A stretch of DNA of 11,668 nt from an uncultured Pseudomonadota bacterium (lineage in GTDB: Bacteria > BMS3Abin14), in the NCBI GenBank assembly GCA_964454175.1, contig CAYVSA010000020.1, positions 18,714 to 30,381 of the forward strand. Direction: 5' to 3'. This document shows positions 16-11,651 of this stretch, one piece after another. The position numbers were made by a program, and so were the translations under genes. The notes below the pieces were generated by a model that did no database searches, was not told the DNA's origin, and was given only the letters and a program-made list of their open reading frames with translations. Numbering within the stretch: the first letter of the stretch is position 1; every line of letters begins with the position of its first letter.

Positions 16-3000
16 TTACCCGATCATTTTTTTTACAATAGCGACCAGCGATTCTGCTCGATAGGGCTTCTGGATAAACTCCACGTCGGGGTATTCGTCC
101 ATTATTTCGGTGCATGTCTCCTGCTCGGTATACCCGGAGGAGAGTATTATCCTTGTGTTGTTTGCTTTTTCCATGATCCCGGCAAAAACTTCCTTTCCCC
201 CCATCTCCGGCATCGTCATATCCAGGAGCACGAGGTCAATTTCCTTTCCCAGCTTGCGGAAGACCTCCAGTCCCTCGGCACCATCACTGGCAAGGATCAC
301 GGTCAGTCCGCTGTCTTCCAGGATGTTGGTGGCAACATCACGGACGTACTCCTCGTCGTCTACCACGAGAACGGTCCCGCTGCCGGTCCATGCTCCCTCT
401 TCCGGGGGGATTTCTCCGGGTATATCCTCCCGGGTGATCTCGGCAAAAGGCAGTAGTACCCTGAAGGTAGTGCCCTTGCCGGGCTCGCTTTTTACCTTGA
501 TGGTCCCCTTGTGGCCCCTGACGATGCCCAGGACAGCTGCCAGTCCCAGACCCCGGCCGGTTTCCTTGGTTGTATAGAACGGGTCGAACAGCTTCTCGAG
601 GGTTTCGTCATCCATCCCGACCCCCGTATCGGAGACGGTCAACAGGGAATATATCCCCCCAGGGAGCTCATCTGGAGAATACAAACTGGTGAGGCTGTCC
701 TGCTCGAATTCCTTTACTCCCGTTGTGACGGTGATGGAGCCGGATTCGTCTCCAATGGCGTCCGAGGCGTTTGTTATGAGGTTCATTATAAGCTGCTGGA
801 TCTGGGCTGAACTTCCCTCGATCGTAACCCTGTCCGGTGAGAAGTTGTAGTAAATGCTGCATTTCTTGCCCACCGAGGAGACGAGGAGCTGGGACATCTC
901 ATCGACTATCAAGTTCATGTCCAGGGTCCCGATAACGAACTTGCCCTTACCGGAGTAGGCCAGCATCTGGTTCGTCAGGTCAGATGCCCTGATGGAGGCC
1001 TGCTCTATCCTCTTGATGTTGGTCGCCGCCGGATGATCATCGGGTATTTTCGGGAGGGCAAGGCTCGCATTCCCCATTATCCCCATGAGAAGATTGTTGA
1101 AATCGTGGGCAATACCCCCAGCCAGGATCCCAAGGCTCTCCAGTTTCTGGGAGTGGTGAATCTGGGCCTCGAGCTTCTTGCGTTCGGTAATATCTCTTAT
1201 GATAGCTGTAAAATGTCTTTTTCCCCCTGATCCGATTGAGGCCAGAGAGAGCTCCAGGGGGAAGATCTCCCCGGTTTTTCGAAGTCCCTCAACTTCCACC
1301 GTTTTTCCCATTATCCTGCCCTTTTCGGACTCGATAATTCGCTTCATTCCGGCCCTGTGTGCTTCGACGTAGCTTTCCGGCATGAAAACTGTCACGTCTG
1401 TGCCCAATGCTTCTTTCTCGCTGTATCCGAAAATGTCGAGGGCCGCTCGATTCCAGGAGGTGATCTTACCATTTATGTCCACCGTAATAATGGCGTCGGT
1501 CGCGGTCTGGACAACCGACCTGAAGTGCTCTTCGCTTTCCTTCAGGGCCTCTTCTGCATTTTTTCGCTTTGTTATGTCTGCAAACATGGCAAGTGCGGCT
1601 ACGGGAGTACCTTCATCGTAGATAGGTGCTGTGGAAATGGCGACGTTAATGGGTGTGCCGTCTTTCCTGTGTCTGACGAGTTCCTCGTCCAGGAGACGCT
1701 CGCCCTCCAGGGTTCCTCTCACCAGGTCCATGAACTCTTTCCTGGCCTGCTCTAATACAGCCGGGCTTATCCGGCCAACGACTTCCTCTGCCTTCCAGCC
1801 GAAGATGCGTTCCGCCGCGGTGTTCCACGTCATTATCTTTCCCGACGGATCAAATGTAATAATTGCCAGTGGGGAGCCGTCGATAAGGGCCTGCAGGTTT
1901 CTGTTGGCCTCCCTCATCGACTTTGAAGCCTGTTTTCTCTCATGGATCTCGGTTTCCAGTTCCGCAGTCCTGATCCTGACTTCGTTTTCCAGGGAAGAGT
2001 GCAATTTTTCCAGCTGTTCAAGCATGGAATTGAAGGCTTCGGCAACTGACCTGATCTCCAACGTACCTGCCAGGTCTGCCCTGGTGGAAAGGTCACCGTT
2101 CTCGACCTGCTTTGCACTTATGCTCAGATTGGTTATGGGTGCTGTGAACTTTTTCAGCAGGAGATCGGTCATAACAAGAAAGATGACAATAGTAGACAAC
2201 GCCACCAATAGGGCAGAACGCTGTGATCTGTAAATAGGCCCGAAAACTTCGGCCGAGTCGCGTTTCACCACCATTCCCCATCCCTCTTCGGGGGATATCT
2301 GGATGTAGCGGTAAGCGGCCAGAACCGGCGTGTTACGGTAGTCTCTTGCAGTAATTATCCCCTCTTCTCCACGGGCTGCCAGCATGGCCGGAATCGCATC
2401 GACCGTATATTTCAGGGGTTTCGGAGTTGTCCCGTCCTCCAGGGGGTATTTCAGGGACGTTAGTATCTTCCTGTCAGCGTCTACCAGGAGGGCCTCGCCG
2501 GTCAGGCCGAGGCCACCACCGGTATGAAGCAGTGGTTTGATCATGCCATCGGAGTGAATGTGCAGTACAAGAATTCCGGCAGGGCCGGTAGCGGGTTTTT
2601 TTCCTTCGGGCGGCATGATGAGCCTTGCGATGTGAAGGTGGTAGCTTGAGTTCATGGAGTCGTATGGTACGAATACCAGGCTTTCGCCCAGATCTGGAAG
2701 CCTGCTGTAATATGACTCGTAATATTTGACCGTCAGGCCTATTTCCTGTGTGTTGGTAGAAAACATCACCGAGAAAGTGTCAGGGTCAAGGATCTCGATC
2801 TTTTCAAAGATGTTGTAAACTGAACTGTAAAGTGCAACGGAGGAGAGGATATTGCCGAAATTCTCAGTTTTTCCGAAATTCCTGAAAACTTCTCCTGCTT
2901 CTTGCTCATTTTCAGGCTTCAGCGCGGCGGCGAGGGAAGTTTTCAACTTGAAAACGTTTGAACGGAGCTCTGTGCTGTCGGTAAGCAGGGCGGCGTCAGC

Positions 3001-3276
3001 CTTTTTTTCCTCCAGCCACCGTACAAGTCTTTCTTTTTTCAGGTCGGCTGTCAGATTGAGAGACTTGAAGACCTCAGCCTGGCGGGATGCAAGGCTGCCC
3101 TTGATGCCGGTGAGGGGAAGGCCGTAAATCGTCACAAGGTAGCTGGCGACAAAGGCTGCTGTCATCAACAGGCCCAGGACTACAAGGAGCCTGGATCTCA
3201 ACGTCAGGAAATGATCGGTGAGCTTTCCGAAAACTCCCATCCTAGTGGGTCTCCCCGGCTGATTTTGCCCCGCCAT
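16..3276 (-). CDS. Membrane-bound hybrid sensor histidine kinase/response regulator (TM - periplasmic Cache-like domain - TM - HAMP - PAS/PAC x2 - HisKA - HATPase_c - REC)
   Basis: 1086-aa ORF. Two hydrophobic segments (LLVVLGLLMTAAFVASYLV; ALLVALSTIVIFLVM). Cache-like tail (DYRNTPVLAAYRYI...WGMVVK). HAMP (PITNLSISAKQVENGDL...EIRSVAEAFNSM). Two PAS-PAC repeats ending DITKRK and DITERK. H-box AGGIAHDFNNLL, N-box NLITNASDA, G1 DTGVGM, F-box FDPFYTTK, G2 GRGLGL. Receiver motifs VLVVDDE, LLDMTMPEMGG, SSG and KP. GAGAGG RBS-like sequence about 10 nt upstream of ATG 3276. Confidence 0.96.
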   Translation of the reverse strand: MAGQNQPGRPTRMGVFGKLTDHFLTLRSRLLVVLGLLMTAAFVASYLVTIYGLPLTGIKGSLASRQAEVFKSLNLTADLKKERLVRWLEEKKADAALLTDSTELRSNVFKLKTSLAAALKPENEQEAGEVFRNFGKTENFGNILSSVALYSSVYNIFEKIEILDPDTFSVMFSTNTQEIGLTVKYYESYYSRLPDLGESLVFVPYDSMNSSYHLHIARLIMPPEGKKPATGPAGILVLHIHSDGMIKPLLHTGGGLGLTGEALLVDADRKILTSLKYPLEDGTTPKPLKYTVDAIPAMLAARGEEGIITARDYRNTPVLAAYRYIQISPEEGWGMVVKRDSAEVFGPIYRSQRSALLVALSTIVIFLVMTDLLLKKFTAPITNLSISAKQVENGDLSTRADLAGTLEIRSVAEAFNSMLEQLEKLHSSLENEVRIRTAELETEIHERKQASKSMREANRNLQALIDGSPLAIITFDPSGKIMTWNTAAERIFGWKAEEVVGRISPAVLEQARKEFMDLVRGTLEGERLLDEELVRHRKDGTPINVAISTAPIYDEGTPVAALAMFADITKRKNAEEALKESEEHFRSVVQTATDAIITVDINGKITSWNRAALDIFGYSEKEALGTDVTVFMPESYVEAHRAGMKRIIESEKGRIMGKTVEVEGLRKTGEIFPLELSLASIGSGGKRHFTAIIRDITERKKLEAQIHHSQKLESLGILAGGIAHDFNNLLMGIMGNASLALPKIPDDHPAATNIKRIEQASIRASDLTNQMLAYSGKGKFVIGTLDMNLIVDEMSQLLVSSVGKKCSIYYNFSPDRVTIEGSSAQIQQLIMNLITNASDAIGDESGSITVTTGVKEFEQDSLTSLYSPDELPGGIYSLLTVSDTGVGMDDETLEKLFDPFYTTKETGRGLGLAAVLGIVRGHKGTIKVKSEPGKGTTFRVLLPFAEITREDIPGEIPPEEGAWTGSGTVLVVDDEEYVRDVATNILEDSGLTVILASDGAEGLEVFRKLGKEIDLVLLDMTMPEMGGKEVFAGIMEKANNTRIILSSGYTEQETCTEIMDEYPDVEFIQKPYRAESLVAIVKKMIG

Positions 3277-3318
3277 GAAATTTCAGCCTCTCGAGAGAAT
3301 ATTTGACTGGCTGCTCCA

Positions 3319-3612
3319 TTATTTCCCCTGACTCAGGAGGGTCAGAGCATCGGCCCTGCCTTCCAGGACCATGTCCTGTGCTTCCTGCCAGTCCATCAAC
3401 CGGACTTCAATGTCTCTTCCCATAGCCCTGGAGATGGCACGGATCACGTCAACATTCAGGCCTCGGGGCACATCGTTTTCGGTCCACTCGACAGGAGGAA
3501 GGTTAGCATCACCGGCGAAGATGAGGGGTTGTTCCTGTGCTGCGAGCCTTACGGGGAGTAGGAGCCCGCCCACACAGAGGGATAGTAAGAATGTGAGGAA
3601 CCTGTTTTTCAC
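3319..3612 (-). pseudogene. Truncated periplasmic solute-binding protein of family 3 (SBP_bac_3, polar amino-acid-binding type); signal peptide plus N-terminal portion only
   Basis: From GTG 3612: signal peptide MKNRFLTFLLSLCVGGLLLPVRLAA, then typical family-3 motifs LIFAGDANLPPVEW, GLNVDVIRAISRAMG, IEVRLMDWQEAQDMVLEGRADAL. It stops at TAA after 97 aa, whereas a complete domain is about 220 aa. The ORF track starts it at 3669. Confidence 0.75.
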
Positions 3613-3692
3613 GTTTCCGGCAATCACCTGAAATGGCAGTTTTGTGGATAAGTTGGCAGGAAAGCCCAATACCCAACTTTTTAATTCAACTA

Positions 3693-3724
3693 ATTATACT
3701 AATAATAACGATAAGGGTGTTCAA
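3693..3724 (-). promoter_or_regulatory. Putative sigma70 promoter for the SBP fragment and kinase
   Basis: On the minus strand: TTGAAC (3724-3719), N17, TAGTAT (3701-3696), overlapping a perfect TATAAT (3698-3693), within an AT-rich divergent spacer. Confidence 0.45.
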
Positions 3725-3797: not shown

Positions 3798-3806
3798 TGG
3801 TATTAT
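3798..3806 (+). promoter_or_regulatory. Possible extended -10 promoter element for the DUF302 gene
   Basis: TG-G-TATTAT about 50 nt upstream of ATG 3855. No convincing -35 at the correct spacing. Confidence 0.3.
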
Positions 3807-3854
3807 TAATAAATGATTAAACACTGACAACGATGGCGGAAGGATGGGGTTGTT

Positions 3855-4250
3855 ATGGAAAAGGGAAACTATTTTTTCAGCGTAAAGGTAGATCTGAGCT
3901 ACGGCGATGCCGTGGCAAAGGTCAGGGAGGCTCTTGCCGCAGAAGGTTTCGGAGTACTCACCGAGATCGATGTTAAGGCGACCCTGAAAAAGAAGCTGGA
4001 CGTCGATTTCAGGCCTTACATTATTCTTGGTGCATGCAACCCGCCCCTGGCGTACCAGACGCTCCAGATGGAAGAGCAGATCGGCCTCATGCTTCCTTGC
4101 AATGTAGTCGTACAGGAGAGTGTGGGCGGGGGAACTGTCGTATCAGCTATCAGCCCCGAGGATGTGATGCAGCCGGTTGGCAATGAGGGTCTGGCACCAG
4201 TGGCTGCAGAGGTGTCAGAGCGGCTGCAGAGGGTGCTGAGAGCGTTGTAA
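3855..4250 (+). CDS. DUF302 domain-containing protein
   Basis: 131 aa with DUF302 signature motifs EGFGVLTEIDVKATLKKKL, YIILGACNPPLA and IGLMLPCNVVV. AGGA/GGGG purine-rich RBS upstream. Confidence 0.93.
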   Translation: MEKGNYFFSVKVDLSYGDAVAKVREALAAEGFGVLTEIDVKATLKKKLDVDFRPYIILGACNPPLAYQTLQMEEQIGLMLPCNVVVQESVGGGTVVSAISPEDVMQPVGNEGLAPVAAEVSERLQRVLRAL

Positions 4251-4302
4251 AAACTGGTCCCCATCGAGGTGTCAGAGCAAAAACGGTCAGGTGTCAGAGC
4301 AA
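4211..4302 (+). repeat. Cluster of three GGTGTCAGAGC motif copies (4211-4221, 4268-4280, 4290-4302)
   Basis: Read directly: GAGGTGTCAGAGCGG in the 3' end of the DUF302 gene, and AGGTGTCAGAGCAA twice in the spacer with a 22-bp period. Confidence 0.9.
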
Positions 4303-4370
4303 CTGCACTGATTGCTTGAATCGCTGCATAAAAAGTTCCATATTCCCGTAATACCTGTGTTTTTAAAGCC

Positions 4371-4444
4371 AACCTGGAACCTGCCTTTCGACAAGCTCAA
4401 GGCCCTGAGCAAAGTCGAAAGGGAACTTGAAACCAGGAGCCCGG
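4371..4444. repeat. Degenerate heptamer tandem repeat (AACCTGG/AACTTGA type) interrupted by a 39-bp REP-like imperfect palindrome (4384-4422)
   Basis: AACCTGG AACCTG [CCTTTCGAC AA GCTCA AGGCCC TGAGC AAA GTCGAAAGG] G AACTTGA AACCAGG AGCCCGG. Outer stem 9 bp, inner stem 5 bp. It lies between convergent genes, so it could also act as a terminator or RNA stabiliser. Confidence 0.8.
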
Positions 4445-4451
4445 TCTATAT

Positions 4452-6056
4452 TTAATCCCTCAACTTCAGATCAACCGCTTCCCCCGGTCCCCAACTGCCG
4501 GCCTCATAGCTCTTTAACCGTTCGGCCCTGTCAGAACACAGCTCGCACTCATGAAGAAGCGGCTCCATGAACTTCCAGGTCAGGTCGATTCCGTCCTGGC
4601 GCCAGAAGAGCATCCGGTCTCCTTTCATACAGTCTAACAGCGCTTTTTCATAGGCGGCCAGGACCGGGCCGTCATACCCCTGCAGGTAGTTAAAATCCAT
4701 GGTGACAGAGCGAAGTCTCGGTTTTGCCCCGGGGCTTTTGGTCTGGAACTTCAGGGAGATGTGTTCATCGGGCTGGATGCCCAGGGTGAGGAGGTTGCCG
4801 GATTTCCCCCCGCCGGAAATATCGCGGAATATGGGATGGGATGTTTTCCGAAATTTGATAACGATCTCGGTAAGCTTTCTGCCAAGCCTTTTGCCCGAGG
4901 TGATGTAGAAGGGAACGCCCCGCCACCTATCGTTGTCCAGGAAGACTTTCATCATGCCAAATGTCGGGGTCAGAGACCCGGGGTCCACGCCCTCTTCCTG
5001 CCTGTAACCGTTTGCTCTGACACCATCGATTATCCCGGGGCCGTATTGTCCCAGAACCAGGTTGTGGTGAACCTCGTGGGTTGGAAAAGGCACGAGCGAC
5101 TCGAAAACCCTGACCTTCTCGTTGTGAACAGCATCCGAGCTGAAGCTTTCCGGAGGCTCCATAGCAGTGAGGGCGAGTAGCTGCATCATGTGGTTCTGGA
5201 ACATGTCCCGCAGGACGCCTGATTTTTCGTAGTATCCGGCCCTCTTTTCCACTCCCAGGCTCTCGGCAGCGATTATGTCCACGTGGTCGACGTGATCCCG
5301 GTTCCACAGCGGTTCGAAAATGGAGTTGGCAAAGCGGAACATGAGGATGTTGCGGACAGTTTCCTTTGCAAGATAGTGATCTATGCGGAAGATCTGATTT
5401 TCTTCGAAGCTCTCGTGAATGACCCTGTCGAGCTCGGCGGCCGACTTCCTGTCACTGCCGTAGGGCTTTTCCACGACGATCCTGGCCCAGCCGTTGCCGT
5501 TCTGATGCTGGACCGAGAGGCCTGCTTCTCCAAGGAGCCGGGCAATATTGCCGTAAAGAAACATTGGGGTAGCGAGGTAGAAGATCCTGTTGCCGCCTGT
5601 TTTGCTGTTTTTGTCAAGTTTTCGCAGGTAATTGGCAAGTTCACGAAAGGAATCAGCTGAATCGTAAACAAGCCTCCGGTAGTGCAGGCGAGCTGAAAAC
5701 TCTTTCCACCCACCGGTGTCAGAGCACTTGCCCCCGTCCTTCTCACTGGTGTCAGAGCAAATTTCCTCACCCAGCCCGATCTTGAGTTTTTTCCGGAATT
5801 CTTCCGATCTGATAGCAGTTCTGCCGCATCCGACGATGCTGAAATGTTCAGGGAGACCGTTGTTGGAATACAGCTGGAACAGGGACGGTATAAGTTTCCG
5901 GGATGTCAGGTCACCCGAGGCCCCTATGATGACAAAGGTACACGGGTCCAGGGGACGATCAAGTTGGGCTTCTTCAGCAGGGATGGTCTCTGTCCTGACG
6001 TGGCCTTCGACTATCCCGCCCAGACCCGTCCCGGAAGTCCTGTTTCCGTCCGACAT
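4452..6056 (-). CDS. zwf: Glucose-6-phosphate 1-dehydrogenase
   Basis: 534 aa. Dinucleotide-binding GASGDL, GCGRT with the Arg that contacts the NADP 2'-phosphate, FYLATP, IVVEKPYG, catalytic signature RIDHYLAKE, RDMFQNHMMQ, RWRGVPFYITSGKRL, AYEKALLD, YEAGSWGP. Confidence 0.98.
   Translation of the reverse strand: MSDGNRTSGTGLGGIVEGHVRTETIPAEEAQLDRPLDPCTFVIIGASGDLTSRKLIPSLFQLYSNNGLPEHFSIVGCGRTAIRSEEFRKKLKIGLGEEICSDTSEKDGGKCSDTGGWKEFSARLHYRRLVYDSADSFRELANYLRKLDKNSKTGGNRIFYLATPMFLYGNIARLLGEAGLSVQHQNGNGWARIVVEKPYGSDRKSAAELDRVIHESFEENQIFRIDHYLAKETVRNILMFRFANSIFEPLWNRDHVDHVDIIAAESLGVEKRAGYYEKSGVLRDMFQNHMMQLLALTAMEPPESFSSDAVHNEKVRVFESLVPFPTHEVHHNLVLGQYGPGIIDGVRANGYRQEEGVDPGSLTPTFGMMKVFLDNDRWRGVPFYITSGKRLGRKLTEIVIKFRKTSHPIFRDISGGGKSGNLLTLGIQPDEHISLKFQTKSPGAKPRLRSVTMDFNYLQGYDGPVLAAYEKALLDCMKGDRMLFWRQDGIDLTWKFMEPLLHECELCSDRAERLKSYEAGSWGPGEAVDLKLRD
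5012..5024 (-). repeat. GGTGTCAGAGCAA motif copy inside zwf (sense strand, read as G-V-R-A)
   Basis: Plus strand TTGCTCTGACACC at 5012-5024. Confidence 0.85.
5711..5761 (+). repeat. Direct pair of CACYGGTGTCAGAGCA copies, 33-bp period, inside zwf (each read as C-S-D-T)
   Basis: CACCGGTGTCAGAGCAC at 5711-5727 and CACTGGTGTCAGAGCAA at 5744-5760. The protein reads ICSDTSEKDGGKCSDTGGW. Confidence 0.9.
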
Positions 6057-6059
6057 GCT

Positions 6060-6980
<921 letters not shown>

Positions 6981-7115
6981 TTCATATTCTCCTGTCAGGG
7001 AGGCGAGATACCCTGGGCCCCGCTCCTGGAGTGGCAGGGGTTAAACGATAATATGTACAAATTTAGCATATTTCTGAAGGGAGGGTCAGGTATTCCATCC
7101 CGCTAAAGGAACTAC

Positions 7116-7144
7116 TTGGATTCGGCCCGGGGGGAAGTTATAAT
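7116..7144 (+). promoter_or_regulatory. Putative sigma70 promoter of the TPAT operon
   Basis: TTGGAT (7116-7121), N17, perfect TATAAT (7139-7144), 65 nt upstream of the likely GTG start at 7210. Confidence 0.65.
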
Positions 7145-7209
7145 CCTGCGAAGTCGTGGGACTGCAGCATTTTCCTGGCGGCTTCATATTATTCAACCGG
7201 GAGATCAAT

Positions 7210-8145
7210 GTGCGCAAAACCAGGAGTCTGATTCAAGAAGGGAAGCTGTTCATCCCGGTATTACTCATGATGGCGCTTATTTTCTCCTCGTGCTCACTGC
7301 AAAGGTATGCCGTCAACAGGATGGGAGACGCCATGGCGGGCAGCGGCAGCACTTTCGCCAGCGATGACAATCCGGAGCTGATACGGGCGGCCACGCCCTT
7401 CAGCCTCAAACTCATCGAGAGCCTGCTGGCAGAGAGCCCCGAGCATCGCGGTCTGCTTCTGGCGGCTGCCAGGGGATTCACCCAGTATGGATACGCCTTC
7501 ACTGAGCAGGATGCGGACGAGGTTGAGAATGAAGATCTCCAACGGGCCATCGAGCTTCGCCGAGATGCCCGCCGCCTCTATATCCGGGCCAGGGATTACG
7601 GCCTGCGGGGACTTGAAACATCCCATAAGGGTATCCGTGATGAACTCTACCGGGATCCGGATAGTGCCGTCCAGGGACTTGTCGTGGAGGATGTACCTTT
7701 AATTTACTGGACGGCTGCTTCATGGGGTGCTGCCATTTCCCTGTCCAAGGACGACCCGGACCTGATCGCTGACCTGCCCCAGATGGAGTCTCTCATTTAC
7801 CGTGCCCTGGAACTGGACGAGGATTACGACTATGGCGCCATTCATGTCTTTCTGATTGCCCTGGAGTCGAGCAGACCGGGTAAAGCTCCCGAAGATCAAG
7901 AGCAGGTTCGTCTCCATTTCCGAAGAGCTGTGGAACTCTCCCGGGGAATGCTGGCCGCGCCGATGGTGGCTATGGCGGAAAACGTTTCCGTGGTCAGCCA
8001 GGACAGGAAGGAGTTCACAGATTTTCTAAACAGGGCCCTGGCCATTGATGCCGACGCAGTACCGGAGTGGCGTCTGAACAACCTGATCATGCAGCGCCGG
8101 GCAGCCTGGCTCCTGTCCCGGATAGACGATCTTTTTCTGGAATAG
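7210..8145 (+). CDS. tatT: TRAP transporter TatT component family lipoprotein (T subunit of a TPAT system)
   Basis: Likely start is GTG 7210 with a GGGAG RBS; the ORF track extends to 7156. Basic N-terminus, hydrophobic core and lipobox-like FSS-C28. Alpha-helical protein with TatT-like motifs DDNPELIRAATPFSLKLIESLL, GFTQYGYAF, LYIRARDYGLRGL, RALELDEDYDYGA, HFRRAVELS, FLNRALA, N-x(6)-A-x-WLL. Lies directly upstream of the dctP and dctQM genes. Confidence 0.88.
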   Translation: MRKTRSLIQEGKLFIPVLLMMALIFSSCSLQRYAVNRMGDAMAGSGSTFASDDNPELIRAATPFSLKLIESLLAESPEHRGLLLAAARGFTQYGYAFTEQDADEVENEDLQRAIELRRDARRLYIRARDYGLRGLETSHKGIRDELYRDPDSAVQGLVVEDVPLIYWTAASWGAAISLSKDDPDLIADLPQMESLIYRALELDEDYDYGAIHVFLIALESSRPGKAPEDQEQVRLHFRRAVELSRGMLAAPMVAMAENVSVVSQDRKEFTDFLNRALAIDADAVPEWRLNNLIMQRRAAWLLSRIDDLFLE

Positions 8146-8173
8146 CCCACCGAACCGGAGGTAAGAGACAATA

Positions 8174-9250
8174 ATGAGGAACGGATCGAAAAGAAGACAG
8201 TGGAAAATCAGGCTCGTAACGGCCATGTTGACGGTCCTGGTTGTGATAGCGGGCGGACAAGATGGGGAAGTGAGCACCGCCTGGGCCACGGCAGGAAAGC
8301 CCCTCAAGATCCGTATGGCCACACTGGCTCCAAAGGGCTCATCTTTTCATCAGAGCCTTCAAATGATGGGCCAGAAATGGCGGCAGGCCCCCGAGGGAGG
8401 AGCCACTCTTACAATCTACACCGACGGGACCATGGGCGGTGAGTTTGACGTGATCCGAAGGATGCGGATCGGCCAGCTCCAGGCGGCCATGCTGACCGTC
8501 GTCGGATTATCGGAAATAGACGAATCCATCAACGTCCTCGAATACATGCCGATGATGTTCCGCTCCCTCGAGGAGATGGAACATGTACTGGAGCAGCTTC
8601 GCCCAACACTCGAGAAGAAGATGCTGGACAAGGGTTTCGTGACTTTATTCTGGGGTGATGCCGGCTGGGTAAGGTTTTTCACCAGCAAACCGATAAGGTA
8701 TCCAGAGGATCTGAAGAAAATGAAAACCTTCGTCTGGGCCGGCGATACCCAGCAGTTAGACCTGATGAAGGCTTCCGGCTATCATGCGGTCCCACTGGAG
8801 GCCAGTGACATCCTGACGGGTCTTCAGACCGGCATGATCAATGCCGTTCCCACGACTCCCCAATACGCTCTGGCTGGTCAGTTCTACCGTCGGGCCAAAT
8901 ACATGCTGGAGGTCAACTGGGCTCTTCTCATGGGAGCCACTGTCGTTACAAGGAAGGCCTGGGACAGCCTCACCCCCCAGGACCGGGAGTTCATCCTGGA
9001 ATCGGCTGCCGAGGCGGGCAGAGAAATACGAACCCAGAGCCGGTTGGAGGCAGAGCAGTCGGTTGAGGCCATGAAGAAGCGGGGCCTCGTGGTTCAGGAT
9101 GTCGGCCCGGAAATAGAGGCACGCTGGGAAGCGGCCGCCGAGGAAGTTTACCCGAAGATCCGCGGGCCCATGGTCCCCGAGGAGATCTTCGACGAGGTGC
9201 AGCGGCTCATCAGGGAGTATCGGGAGGCTGAACGGAAAGAGCCCGAATGA
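8174..9250 (+). CDS. dctP: TRAP transporter substrate-binding protein, DctP family (TatP-T type)
   Basis: 358 aa. N-terminal signal-like segment, KIRMATLAPKGS, IYTDGTMGGEFDVIRRMRIGQLQAA, PEDLKKMK, LTGLQTGMINA, KAWDSLTPQDR. GAGGT RBS. Confidence 0.93.
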   Translation: MRNGSKRRQWKIRLVTAMLTVLVVIAGGQDGEVSTAWATAGKPLKIRMATLAPKGSSFHQSLQMMGQKWRQAPEGGATLTIYTDGTMGGEFDVIRRMRIGQLQAAMLTVVGLSEIDESINVLEYMPMMFRSLEEMEHVLEQLRPTLEKKMLDKGFVTLFWGDAGWVRFFTSKPIRYPEDLKKMKTFVWAGDTQQLDLMKASGYHAVPLEASDILTGLQTGMINAVPTTPQYALAGQFYRRAKYMLEVNWALLMGATVVTRKAWDSLTPQDREFILESAAEAGREIRTQSRLEAEQSVEAMKKRGLVVQDVGPEIEARWEAAAEEVYPKIRGPMVPEEIFDEVQRLIREYREAERKEPE

Positions 9251-11103
9251 GGGAGGCTGTACCGGACAGCACCGGGACAGTGGGAGGAAATGGCCCCGTC
9301 AGCTTCTCCCGATTCTGGAAACAAGGGGAGAACTTTCTGATCGGCATCGCCCTTGCGGCCATGGTTTTGATACCCCTGGCCGAAATTGTCCTGCGGGCGG
9401 TCTTCAAGGTGGGTATCTCGGCTTCGACCTCCCTGGTCCAGCACCTGACCCTGGTGGTGTCTATGGCAGGGGGTGCCATCGCTGCCCGGGAAAACCGGCT
9501 CCTTTCCCTTTCTGCAGCTACCGATTATCTCAAGGGTCCTTATCGATCCGCCGCACGGATATACAGCGGAGCTTTTGCTCTGGCTGTCACGGCCCTGCTT
9601 GGTGTGGCCGGCGTTCAGTTCATTCAAGCGGAGCGGCTGGGCGGGAAGATCCTTGTCTACGGCATCCCGATTTGGATCGTGCAGTTGTGCATTCCCGTGG
9701 GTTTCGCCATGATCTCCCTTCACATCCTCCGGTATGCGGCTGATCGGTGGTCCGGGCGGCTCCTGGTCACACTGATCGCGGGGACGATCGTCATGGCGGG
9801 CCTCATGCCGCCCTTCTCTCCAGCCGTCCTGGTCCCCCTTGCCCTGGCCGGTCTCATTCTGGCCACGGCCCTTGGATCCCCCGTCTTCGTCCTCCTCGGA
9901 GGAGCGGCTGTCATCCTCTTCTGGGGGGCGGATCTGCCCATCGCCTCCATTCCCCTTGACCAGTATCGCCTGGTTACGAACCCGTCTCTTCCGGCCCTCC
10001 CCCTGTTCACACTGGCTGGTTATTTTCTGGCGGAAGGGGGCGCCCCCCGGAGACTAATCAGGCTGTTTCAGGTTAGTCTTGGTGGTGTCAGAGGCGGACC
10101 GGCCATCATAACCGCCGTTATATGTGCCTTTTTCACATCCTTCACCGGAGCATCCGGGGTGACCATCCTGGCTCTGGGAGGGCTCCTCATGCCGATACTG
10201 ACAGCGTCCGGCTGTTCAGAGCGGTCGGCCCTTGGATTGCTGACCGGCTCCGGTTCCCTGGGCCTCCTCTTCCCTCCCTGCCTCCCGCTGATCCTGTACG
10301 CCATCATCGCAAAAGTCTCCCTGGAAGAGATCTTTCTGGCCGGGGTCCTCCCCGGGGTCCTCCTGGTGGCCATGACCGCCTGGTGGGGTGCCCGGCAATG
10401 TCCGAGGGTCGAATCAACCGGGAAGAGATTCAAACCCGAAGAGGTGAGACAGGCACTCTGGGAAGCCAAATGGGAAATGCTATTGCCCCTGGTCGCCCTC
10501 GGATCTCTTTTCAGCGGCCTGGCCACACCGGTGGAGTCGGCTGCTATGACCGCCCTTTACGCCTTTATGACACAGACCCTTTTTCATCGGGATCTGAAGC
10601 TGTCACGTGATATCAGTCGGGTGCTGACAGAATGCGGGCTGCTGATCGGTGGTGTGCTTCTCATCCTGGGTGTTGCCCTCGGTTTTACCAACTACCTGGT
10701 GGATGCCCAGATCCCTTCCCGCATGGTTGACCTGGTCACCGGCACCATCGAGTCTCCCCTGGTGTTCCTGCTCCTCCTGAACGTTTTTCTGATAGTCGTC
10801 GGCTGCCTGATGGATATCTACTCGGCCATTGTGGTGGTGGTGCCTCTCATCGTCCCACTGGGTGCGGCTTTCGGGATCGATCCGGTTCATCTGGGGATAA
10901 TTTTCCTGGCCAACCTCGAGTTGGGCTACCTTACCCCCCCGGTAGGGATGAACCTTTTTCTTGCCTCCTATCGGTTCGACAAGCCGCTGCCGGAGGTCTA
11001 CCGGTCGATACTGCCTATTCTTTTCGTCCTTCTGGTCGGTGTGCTCCTGATAACCTACATCCCGCCCTTAACGACCTTTCTCCCCAAACTCCTTTACCGC
11101 TGA
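9247..11103 (+). CDS. dctM: TRAP transporter fused small and large permease (DctQ-DctM)
   Basis: 618-aa highly hydrophobic protein overlapping the dctP stop (ATGA). The N-terminal about 170 aa is DctQ-like (GGAIAARENRLL). The C-terminal part has DctM motifs LPALPLFTLAG, FTSFTGASG, GSLGLLFPP, ATPVES, GIDPVHLGIIF and GYLTPPVGMNLF. Confidence 0.95.
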   Translation: MREAVPDSTGTVGGNGPVSFSRFWKQGENFLIGIALAAMVLIPLAEIVLRAVFKVGISASTSLVQHLTLVVSMAGGAIAARENRLLSLSAATDYLKGPYRSAARIYSGAFALAVTALLGVAGVQFIQAERLGGKILVYGIPIWIVQLCIPVGFAMISLHILRYAADRWSGRLLVTLIAGTIVMAGLMPPFSPAVLVPLALAGLILATALGSPVFVLLGGAAVILFWGADLPIASIPLDQYRLVTNPSLPALPLFTLAGYFLAEGGAPRRLIRLFQVSLGGVRGGPAIITAVICAFFTSFTGASGVTILALGGLLMPILTASGCSERSALGLLTGSGSLGLLFPPCLPLILYAIIAKVSLEEIFLAGVLPGVLLVAMTAWWGARQCPRVESTGKRFKPEEVRQALWEAKWEMLLPLVALGSLFSGLATPVESAAMTALYAFMTQTLFHRDLKLSRDISRVLTECGLLIGGVLLILGVALGFTNYLVDAQIPSRMVDLVTGTIESPLVFLLLLNVFLIVVGCLMDIYSAIVVVVPLIVPLGAAFGIDPVHLGIIFLANLELGYLTPPVGMNLFLASYRFDKPLPEVYRSILPILFVLLVGVLLITYIPPLTTFLPKLLYR

Positions 11104-11121
11104 GCACTGTCTGTCTGTATG

Positions 11122-11149
11122 TTGAATATCATCTTCATTCTGTTATAAT
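11122..11149 (+). promoter_or_regulatory. Putative sigma70 promoter with extended -10 for the entericidin-like gene
   Basis: TTGAAT (11122-11127), N16, TATAAT (11144-11149), with TG at 11141-11142 (TGnTATAAT). Confidence 0.65.
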
Positions 11150-11200
11150 CCGGTAGCTTTTCAGGTGTAATGTTGCAGGGGGCAGTTATGGAGGACATTG

Positions 11201-11332
11201 ATGAAAAGGTTATCAGCTGTAATAGCAGTCATTTTCCTGGCAGTGAGCCTTGGCGCCTGCAGCACGATGGAGGGGTTGGGAAAAGACATCCAGAAAGCAG
11301 GCAAGAGCCTCGAGGATGCCGCTGAAAAGTAA
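11201..11332 (+). CDS. Entericidin EcnA/B family small lipoprotein (43 aa; below the ORF-track cutoff)
   Basis: Translated by hand: MKRLSAVIAVIFLAVSLGACSTMEGLGKDIQKAGKSLEDAAEK*. GGAGGA RBS at 11190-11195. Lipobox LGA-C20 followed by the family pattern C-x-T-x-x-G-x-G-x-D-I-x-x-x-G-x-x-(I/L)-x-x-A-A. Confidence 0.92.
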   Translation: MKRLSAVIAVIFLAVSLGACSTMEGLGKDIQKAGKSLEDAAEK

Positions 11333-11399
11333 TCCGCAGATTTCTGAGATTAGATCAGGGCCTGTAATCAACCCTGGTTAAAGCTATTTATAAATTTAA

Positions 11400-11474
11400 G
11401 GGGACGTAGCTCAGCGGGAGAGCACCTGCTTCGCATGCAGGGGGTCGTGGGTTCAAATCCCATCGTCTCCACCA
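11400..11474 (+). tRNA. tRNA-Ala (anticodon CGC)
   Basis: Acceptor stem GGGGACG/CGTCTCC with the G3:U70 alanine identity pair. D-arm GCTC/GAGC. Anticodon stem CCTGC/GCAGG with loop TT-CGC-AT (anticodon 11432-11434). T-arm GTGGG-TTCAAAT-CCCAT. Discriminator A and encoded CCA. Confidence 0.98.
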
Positions 11475-11482
11475 CTCGACGC

Positions 11483-11522
11483 ACAAAGAAACCCGTCTTG
11501 AAAAAGGCGGGTTTCTTTGTTT
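11483..11522 (+). terminator. Rho-independent, probably bidirectional, terminator after tRNA-Ala
   Basis: ACAAAGAAACCCGTCTT-GAAA-AAGGCGGGTTTCTTTGT: 17-bp stem with one G:U pair, a GNRA loop, and A-rich and T-rich flanks. Confidence 0.9.
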
Positions 11523-11641
11523 GCTCGTGGCAGGCCTTGTTGCGATAATCGCGTGCCGCGAGTGCGGAGAGTAGTCCCGAGCAAAGTGCTGTCAGTACAT
11601 GCACTGCGCCGAGGGGCACCAATAAAATCAACGTATACATA

Positions 11642-11651
11642 GTGTCAGAGC
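11642..11651 (+). repeat. Near-perfect motif copy (A)GTGTCAGAGC(C), intergenic
   Basis: 10/11 match to GGTGTCAGAGC, downstream of the tRNA terminator. Confidence 0.65.

Follow-up and report, generated by a model that had tools for sequence, protein, structure and literature searches.

The 11-nucleotide word GGTGTCAGAGC recurs in the genes and spacers of an 11,668-nucleotide stretch of DNA from an uncultured Pseudomonadota bacterium (hereafter the window, meaning the whole stretch analysed), and, commonly with a further A, it probably represents the core that is conserved in the repeats at the ends of TIRYT/TIRtron elements, here dispersed as orphan copies. TIRYT genes resemble those of the repetitive extragenic palindrome (REP)-associated tyrosine transposases (RAYTs), but the repeats on either side of them are inverted repeats and not REPs (Di Nocera, De Gregorio and Rocco 2013, PMC3733652). 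The elements are small, and the one gene that they have codes for the transposase, a Y1 (HUH) enzyme of single-stranded DNA. The terminal inverted repeats (TIRs) of the genes described there share the sequence GGGGWSAS, and they form moderately abundant families that occur as singles, dimers and clusters (PMC3733652). As GGTGTCAGAGC lies one base from this published consensus and has a G variant that fits it, the family is a further member of this already known class; it is not lineage-specific.

A first-pass annotation, made from the window alone, had inferred that the word was a lineage-specific signal and had stated that it matched none of the canonical ones. The second of these statements was nearly right, the word being a single base off the TIRYT consensus as given in PMC3733652, and the first does not hold, the same 11-mer being amplified in Leptospirales, Acidimicrobiales, Sandaracinaceae, Ca. 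Uabimicrobium and other metagenome-assembled genomes (MAGs). An apparent lineage-specific signal is in this way replaced by a likely and concrete cause, the ends of a widespread transposase class. In what follows, G000 is the genome of the window (2.17 Mb in 135 contigs, 98.5% complete) and the window is G000:C20:18714-30381; C-numbers denote contigs of G000, G-numbers genomes and L-numbers loci fetched from other genomes.

Association of the word with Y1/HUH transposase genes

A scan of 185,579 species genomes (one per species) for two copies of GGTGTCAGAGC lying 5-30 nt apart returned at least 113 stretches from very diverse taxa, a figure that mixes two sorts of hit and is not a count of true family members. 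The first sort comprises many coding tandem repeats, mostly from high-GC actinobacteria, that contain GGTGTCAGAGC incidentally; the second comprises arrays of the form GGTGTCAGAGCA... with locus-specific spacers, as in G000, and is found in Leptospirales, other Spirochaetota, Ca. Uabimicrobium, Gemmataceae/Isosphaeraceae, Sandaracinaceae, sponge-type Acidimicrobiales and Gammaproteobacteria. Five unrelated genomes hold 103, 60, 51, 26 and 23 exact copies (reversed controls 0-8), and a viral contig collection gave only 5 stretches. Perfect tandem arrays of 7 to 16 units, each made up of GGTGTCAGAGC and an A-rich spacer of 8-11 nt, occur in Ca. Uabimicrobium (L041, L108 and L129) with periods of 19 and 22 nt, and in one of these genomes the TIRYT profile has 32 matches, for which TGTGTCAGAGC and GGTGTCAGACC are the usual flanking words. 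Among the papers matched by the 11-mer or its reverse complement, those examined by title and abstract do not deal with bacterial repeats, and the matches look like primer strings; within this scope no paper naming the word was found.

Clustering of the open reading frames (ORFs) within 2.5 kb of GGTGTCAGAGC yielded a single specific recurrent family, a Y1_Tnp (PF01797) protein of 190-306 amino acids. A profile search over the scan stretches gave, among the matches listed, six full Y1_Tnp genes 36-306 bp from an array, together with two fragments right beside arrays and, at a distance of 4 kb, one further gene. Five full-length array-adjacent proteins score 65-89 bits on the NCBIfam model REP_Tyr_transpos ('REP-associated tyrosine transposase', cut-off 80), and an alignment of the six full proteins, which at 190-306 amino acids are longer than IS200 transposases, shows N-H-x-H to be invariant and Y...N(P) to be present. 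The array-flanked proteins are only 21-30% identical to one another, yet the 11-mer adjacent to them is identical.

In the five unrelated genomes, GGTGTCAGAGC with at most one mismatch lies no more than about 450 bp from the matched gene segment at 17 of 20 TIRYT loci, where chance would place about 0.06 per locus; at the remaining loci the word is found once at 1.3 kb and is lacking at two. The TIRYT loci sampled here are those reached via GGTGTCAGAGC itself or via the five chosen genomes, and in a tree of 29 TIRYT proteins (from which L150 was left out for its N-derived X residues and in which a probably mis-framed L144 ORF is included) the word flanks several deep branches. The 'footprint of an HUH nuclease' that the first-pass annotation had offered as one possibility is thus what the neighbourhoods point to, since the word flanks RAYT-like Y1/HUH genes both in the bacterium's own family and in distant phyla. 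Clusters beside Y1/RAYT genes, which the same annotation had suggested looking for, were likewise found in relatives and other phyla, G000 itself having only remnants, of which that on C87 is broken at a copy of the word.

The position of the word within an element can be read from a Sandaracinaceae MAG, which carries eight full copies of one element that are 81-92% alike. On the 3' side, similarity between these copies extends through GCTCTGACACC and is lost some 6 nt further on, and the word therefore belongs to, or directly abuts, the element end. Some of these 3' ends carry one word and others carry arrays of whole and partial words.

Within the family to which G000 belongs, Y1 matches are present in 13 of 16 genomes, G000 included, and the genes were sorted by eye into two subtypes. 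Proteins of the first have about 280-290 amino acids, start with MARxLR and possess a longer C-terminal tail, and their genes have inverted repeats of 22-24 nt beginning GGGGTC(G/A); those of the second have about 215-230 amino acids, with short flanking arrays of GG(T/G)GTCAGAGC. At L143, for instance, a gene for a Y1 protein of 229 amino acids (1459-2148) is preceded by plus-strand copies at 1368 and 1421 and followed by minus-strand copies at 2370 and 2390. At L145, L150 and L138 the gene lies between GGGGTCAGAGC, GGGGTCAGAGY and GGGGTCAAAGC sequences, GGGGTCAGAGC at L145 being single on one flank and threefold on the opposite one, and it is GGGGTCAGAGC that takes the place of the main word at TIRYT genes of relatives. 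The 13-mer GGTGTCAGAGCAA is present in 10 of 15 same-family genomes and in 1 of 25 sampled genomes of other families (reversed control 0-1), most family relatives having 0-10 copies; the only copy in G005 sits beside its Y1 gene, and the only copy in G015 lies 36 bp ahead of a Y1 fragment. Identity across phyla makes GG(T/G)GTCAGAGC a precise candidate for the recognition or cleavage sequence of TIRYT enzymes.

The orphan family in the genome and in the window

Exact copies of GGTGTCAGAGC number 53 in G000 (about 24 per Mb), against 1.3-3.2 expected under Markov models of orders 1-6, and the word is the second most frequent 11-mer of the genome. When synonymous codons were redrawn in a proxy set of ORFs covering 87% of G000, 1.2 +/- 1.1 copies resulted (maximum 4 in 60 replicates) against the 19 observed; the other 34 lie in the remaining 13% at a density about 12-fold higher than in the proxy ORFs, and by inspection and Pfam about 16 copies are in credible genes. 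In the window, matches with at most one mismatch number 10, against a mean of 0.24 and a maximum of 2 in 200 dinucleotide-preserving shuffles. The excess over chance claimed for the window is accordingly confirmed by shuffles, genome-wide Markov models and the codon-preserving redraw alike, and the genome-wide count that had been proposed as a check is far above Markov expectation and spread over 20 contigs, so that the family is not confined to this locus.

The 53 copies fall into 32 clusters on these 20 contigs (17 singles, nine pairs and six triples), with neighbouring copies mostly 18-25 bp apart within a full range of 18-35 bp and often forming direct pairs. Seven of the 32 clusters lie near a contig end (within 150 bp) or an N gap (within 300 bp), and GGTGTCAGAGC accounts for some contig breaks in G000 and in similar metagenome assemblies. 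The strand split of 34 plus and 19 minus refers to the arbitrary orientation of the 135 contigs. The base following the word is A in 45 of the 53 copies, and the preceding bases are variable and G-poor. The variant GGGGTCAGAGC has 18 copies, and for the remaining 32 one-mismatch words the average is 1.7 copies (permuted words, 1.2), which makes this a sharp family; because its one-mismatch neighbours barely exceed background, it looks recent or maintained.

No secondary structure signal was found on folding six motif stretches as single-stranded DNA (z of -0.35 to +0.87 against shuffles), and no conserved GTAG or GTGG, the GT[AG]G tag, adjoins GGTGTCAGAGC in G000. A larger mobile unit was sought in 13 inter-copy spacers of at least 12 nt, and those of at least 22 nt have no other copy in G000; short A-rich spacers recur 2-8 times, as they would by chance. 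With the spacers unique, only 11-14 nt are common to the copies. Broken-off copies occur within arrays, for example at L143 (1340-1435) and in G000 on C37 and C43.

A search of G000 with Pfam Y1_Tnp gave one sub-threshold match, and tblastn gave three decayed pieces of transposase genes:

C103: an ORF of 128 amino acids with the HUH motif kept and the tyrosine region gone, preceded by GGGGTCAGGTCCCACC...
C87: GGGGTCAGACCTCAC..., about 95 nt, the first 30 codons of a gene that stops exactly at the motif copy C87:614-624
C98: a C-terminal fragment between GGGGTCAC... and ...CTGACCCC

On C87, GGGGTCAGACC... marks one boundary of the remnant, and the break at its opposite end falls exactly at a GCTCTGACACC copy. 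Since only remnants were found, the family of 53 copies is an orphan in this assembly, and it bears on whether such repeats outlive their enzyme; the enzyme that made it has presumably either been lost or lies in unassembled, repeat-flanked DNA.

Several other repeats were observed in the same genome. Its commonest other 11-mers are those of the tandem heptamers GTTGGAC, ATTGGAC, CTGGGTC, CTGGAAC and CAGAAAC, with 30-58 copies each, and some of these heptamers adjoin motif copies (e.g. C19:25180-25207 and C90:3240-3310). A second end-like repeat, (GGAATTAAT)GGGGTCAGAGCACTTTG, is found at C15:19319, C15:26661, C78:5962, C10:11 and C128:2328, three of these five copies being at a contig end or N gap and that on C78 being a solo unit in an intergenic spacer. 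At C37:13777-14864 two plus copies of the main word face three minus copies across about 1 kb that includes an N gap, an interval of TIRtron size in which no recognisable gene and no Y1 similarity was found.

All of the copies originally reported in the window were found again, namely six exact ones (4211, 4268, 4290, 5715 and 5748 on the plus strand and 5014-5024 on the minus strand), of which four (4268, 4290, 5748 and, on the minus strand, 5014) extend to GGTGTCAGAGCAA, the one-mismatch copies at 10084 and 11641, and the 9-mer at 3341. Two further one-mismatch copies, at 4701 and 6520, had not been listed and bring the one-mismatch copies to four. The three peptide readings are also as stated: V-S-E in DUF302, G-V-R-A/G in zwf and DctM, and C-S-D-T in zwf. 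The copies and the genes that carry them are as follows:

3341..3349, plus strand: 9-mer core GTCAGAGCA, probably incidental; the minus strand reads GCTCTGACCC in the A-D-A-L-T codons of a truncated SBP_bac_3 ORF (3319-3669)
3855-4250: DUF302 gene, carrying the copy at 4211
4211..4221, plus strand: exact GGTGTCAGAGC inside DUF302, read E-V-S-E-R
4268-4281 and 4290-4302, plus strand: intergenic direct pair of GGTGTCAGAGCAAA and GGTGTCAGAGCAA, their starts 22 bp apart, in the spacer that separates DUF302 from the convergent zwf
4452-6056, minus strand: zwf
4701..4711, plus strand: GGTGACAGAGC, one mismatch, in zwf; may be chance
5011..5024, minus strand: the 14-mer GGTGTCAGAGCAAA on the zwf sense strand, read G-V-R-A-N
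5715-5725 and 5748-5761, plus strand: two copies antisense to zwf, in the block 5715..5762, with C-S-D-T read twice
6060-6980, minus strand: short 6-phosphogluconate dehydrogenase-like gene
6520..6530, plus strand: GGTGCCAGAGC, one mismatch, in the 6-phosphogluconate dehydrogenase-like gene; may be chance
9247-11103: DctQ-DctM fusion ORF of a TRAP transporter
10084..10094, plus strand: GGTGTCAGAGG, one mismatch, in frame in the DctQ-DctM fusion gene, read G-V-R-G
11641..11651, plus strand: AGTGTCAGAGC, one mismatch, intergenic, downstream of tRNA-Ala and 17 bases before the contig end

The surroundings of the outermost of these can be described briefly. The SBP_bac_3 ORF (minus strand, 3204-3693 in the window) has only the first 62 of 132 profile positions and may be a broken sensor domain; it ends 43 nt ahead of the start of a gene for a PAS/HAMP histidine kinase-receiver of 1086 amino acids (16-3276), and the near-motif GCTCTGACCC lies 28 nt ahead of its stop. 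A tRNA-Ala (CGC) at 11400-11474, which is the sole Rfam match in the window, is followed by a terminator-like inverted repeat of 17 nt with a 4-nt loop (11483-11520), and the contig ends 148 nt past this repeat, just beyond the one-mismatch copy AGTGTCAGAGC.

Copies within genes and the competing explanations

Comparison with orthologues covered eight of the 16-19 coding copies, in four genes, and these are of two sorts, namely inserted DNA and conserved V-S-E peptides whose codons spell GGTGTCAGAGC. To the first sort belongs the 36-nt (12-codon) in-frame insertion ICSDTSEKDGGK in zwf (residues 99-110, aligned gap 5727-5762), which carries one motif copy, abuts a second and is absent from all 11 family orthologues (57-72% identical) as well as from the solved homologue 9emm; the 22 nt that separate the copies at 5715 and 5748 occur nowhere else in G000. 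In the gene for the DUF3108/AMIN protein of G000 two copies fall within 19 inserted codons (ELVSEQTELVSEQ...) that the one alignable orthologue lacks. Outside genes, the pair at 4268 and 4290 is absent from the syntenic spacers of two relatives that keep DUF302-zwf, and these hold heptamer repeats instead (L152:2878-2963 and L153:1071-1500). The word is thus polymorphic as an insertion, and in zwf and DUF3108 element ends appear able to remodel protein loops.

At sites of the second sort no length has changed. The copy at 4211 in DUF302 stands on a conserved peptide, where synonymous differences in G000 complete GGTGTCAGAGC, and the GlpD-like copies are on V-S-E peptides conserved in orthologues from which G000 departs in codon choice only; one GlpD-like copy is matched base for base over the 11-mer at the corresponding site of a relative (L202). 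The proposal that every coding copy is an insertion was rejected on the evidence of the DUF302 site and both GlpD-like sites. The check, proposed in that annotation, of whether codons had been changed towards the motif showed synonymous differences in DUF302 and the GlpD-like gene, and insertions in zwf and DUF3108. Across G000, V-S-E is spelled GTG TCA GAG 13 times in 241, against 5.5 expected. The zwf copy at 5011-5024 (G-V-R-A-N) has the same length as its orthologues and differs by 5 bases from the closest. The copy at 4211 is bracketed by a direct repeat of 13/14 nt (4199-4212 and 4219-4232; AGTGGCTGCAGAGG / AGCGGCTGCAGAGG; GGCTGCAGAGG with flanks), read in two different frames with protein length unchanged relative to orthologues, which might reflect a local templated rewrite. 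That the signal acts at the level of DNA and is not a protein motif, as had been argued from the three readings, stands: the word exceeds a codon-aware null, is read in several frames, and at no fewer than two coding sites is inserted DNA.

If the copies derive from TIRYT ends, the enzyme would recognise and cut single-stranded DNA at or beside the word, and repeated nick-and-rejoin or template switching at the ends would give rise to local duplications and arrays. Very short end pieces might then be transferred, or copied from a template, to new sites, and within genes selection would leave only in-frame or harmless events. Dispersal of such short ends would, in this scheme, be the work of the transposase acting on its own ends.

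A number of observations weigh against this account. Neither Pfam Y1_Tnp nor tblastn with 6 + 11 query proteins revealed an intact TIRYT gene in G000 (98.5% complete, 135 contigs), and its three remnants are of the subtype with longer GGGGTC(G/A)... repeats and not of the GGTGTCAGAGC-array subtype. The word does not keep a single orientation with respect to the gene, being inward on both sides at some loci and outward or direct at others, and at several loci the word is on the same strand on both sides of the gene. The third base of GGTGTCAG is T where GGGGWSAS has G, GGGGTCAGAGC being the form that fits the consensus. The V-S-E coding copies, and the 11-mer shared with L202, need no insertion at those sites. 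Only 11-14 nt are common to the copies, the spacers of paired copies being unique, and we know of no transposition mechanism that moves so short a piece. Directional stutter at the ends was considered and dropped, since partial copies elsewhere are 5'-anchored in 70 cases and 3'-anchored in 72; in G000 three partial copies keep the 5' spacer and none keeps the 3' flank. The passages of PMC3733652 and PMC6006769 that deal with TIRYTs mention no biochemistry on any of them.

A bolder version of the same idea, which we hold to be possible though distinctly doubtful, is that the 11-14-nt end core is a self-standing mobile DNA unit, written without flanking element sequence. It would call, again tentatively, for a Y1/HUH enzyme cutting on both sides of the word or for short-patch templated copying, and it could conceivably bring together the in-frame insertions and the same-length rewriting seen at the V-S-E sites, at G-V-R-A in zwf and in the duplicated 13/14-mer at 4211. 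Were it true, the persistence of an identical word across phyla, beside proteins only about 25% identical, would mean that the end is constrained either by the catalytic core, which is conserved, or by a single-strand DNA factor of the host. No smaller mobile DNA word would then be known from bacteria, and enzymes could acquire loop insertions from it.

The main rival to a terminal repeat, and an improbable one in our judgement, is that GGTGTCAGAGC is the preferred insertion or cleavage target of Y1 elements, with solo copies as unoccupied or vacated targets and abundance having another cause. Targets of this sort have precedent, IS608 having a TTAC target that adjoins its left end and some insertion sequence (IS) elements inserting into REPs, as ISPpu9 is described as doing. 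A conserved flanking target would also fall inside the inter-copy similarity of the Sandaracinaceae element, and the varying orientation of the word and the many copies without an intact element in G000 are compatible with a target, but the 50-fold excess and the arrays are left unexplained by it. The word moreover stands on both sides of many genes, like the TIRs published in PMC3733652, and in the C87 remnant it forms one boundary of an internally deleted element.

A selected binding site for a host regulator or nucleoid protein, with pairs some two helical turns apart serving as operators, is more improbable still. The direct pairs are mostly 21-25 bp apart, one-mismatch variants are scarce, and two arrays of G000 (C43:7947-8072 and C54:6004-6037) lie about 90-100 bp upstream of TetR-family genes; against this, pair spacing extends from 18 to 35 bp, arrays contain broken-off copies, other copies are inserted in coding loops, the same word stands beside transposase genes in very distant phyla, and two TetR neighbours among 32 clusters is, by a rough estimate, about the level of chance. 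Two further TetR genes were seen near arrays of an unrelated MAG (L052 and L115).

There is very little probability that a naturally competent lineage uses this word for DNA uptake, short, non-palindromic and present in genes and spacers though it is. Its density is about 24 copies per Mb where known uptake sequences occur about once per kb, it is not lineage-specific, with most relatives having 0-10 copies of the 13-mer, and it forms tandem arrays and has transposase genes as neighbours. The uptake and nucleoid-protein sites suggested in the first-pass annotation are accordingly unlikely on common grounds, these being the low density, the arrays with partial copies and the transposase-gene neighbours.

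An assembly or adapter artefact, to which the seven clusters near contig ends or N gaps might point, is scarcely credible, for repeats at contig ends are what short-read assemblers are expected to produce, and copies occur in frame within intact conserved genes, in independent assemblies and closed chromosomes, and in a 298-nt contig of the public run X1, possibly the source sample, that spans both zwf copies with one base differing (contigs of this run cover parts of 3800-6100, which do not include the intergenic pair).

Comparison with known systems

Neisseria DNA-uptake sequences (DUS), Pasteurellaceae uptake signal sequences (USS) and cyanobacterial HIP1 are likewise short words found in genes, in several frames, and in spacers. 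DUS and USS have a density of roughly one per kb, are fairly evenly spread and belong to one competent lineage, whereas GGTGTCAGAGC has a density tens of times lower, forms tandem arrays, crosses phyla and is linked to transposases.

Closer in mechanism are the IS200/IS605 elements of the IS608 type, whose transposases share with the proteins described here the HUH motif and one tyrosine (PF01797 matches). The presence of the word on the same strand on both sides at several loci is what their strand-specific mechanism predicts. Here, in contrast, there are no subterminal hairpins and no tnpB, and the proteins have Y...NP and not the Y...Q given for that group in Table 1 of PMC6006769.

The REP/REPIN-RAYT systems of Escherichia and Pseudomonas also consist of short repeats flanking a related Y1 gene (PMC6006769, PMC5581495, PMC3116915), and in-frame insertions into genes are reported for REPs (PMC3733652, PMC6006769). 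GGTGTCAGAGC differs from these repeats in having no palindrome, hairpin or GT[AG]G tag, in forming direct arrays and not inverted doublets, and in its much lower copy number.

The TIRtron/TIRYT elements share with the present family a RAYT-like Y1/HUH gene placed between non-hairpin repeats, whose start GGGG[AT][CG]A[CG] is here that of the variant GGGGTCAGAGC, and a patchy distribution over phyla of moderately abundant copies dispersed as singles, dimers and clusters. Quentin et al. (2018, PMC6006769) assign to TnpAY1 subclass 2.1, which often has a helix-turn-helix (HTH) tail, 20 of the 26 TIRYTs that had been described, and they match this subclass to Bertels group '(1)'; in Bertels et al. 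(2017, PMC5581495) Group 1 is the most IS-like RAYT group after Group 6. The family described here differs from the published TIRtrons in its T at the third position, in having 11-14 nt in common instead of a long TIR, in the decayed remnants that are all G000 retains and the copies in frame in its housekeeping genes, and in an 11-mer that is identical beside proteins only 21-30% identical to one another.

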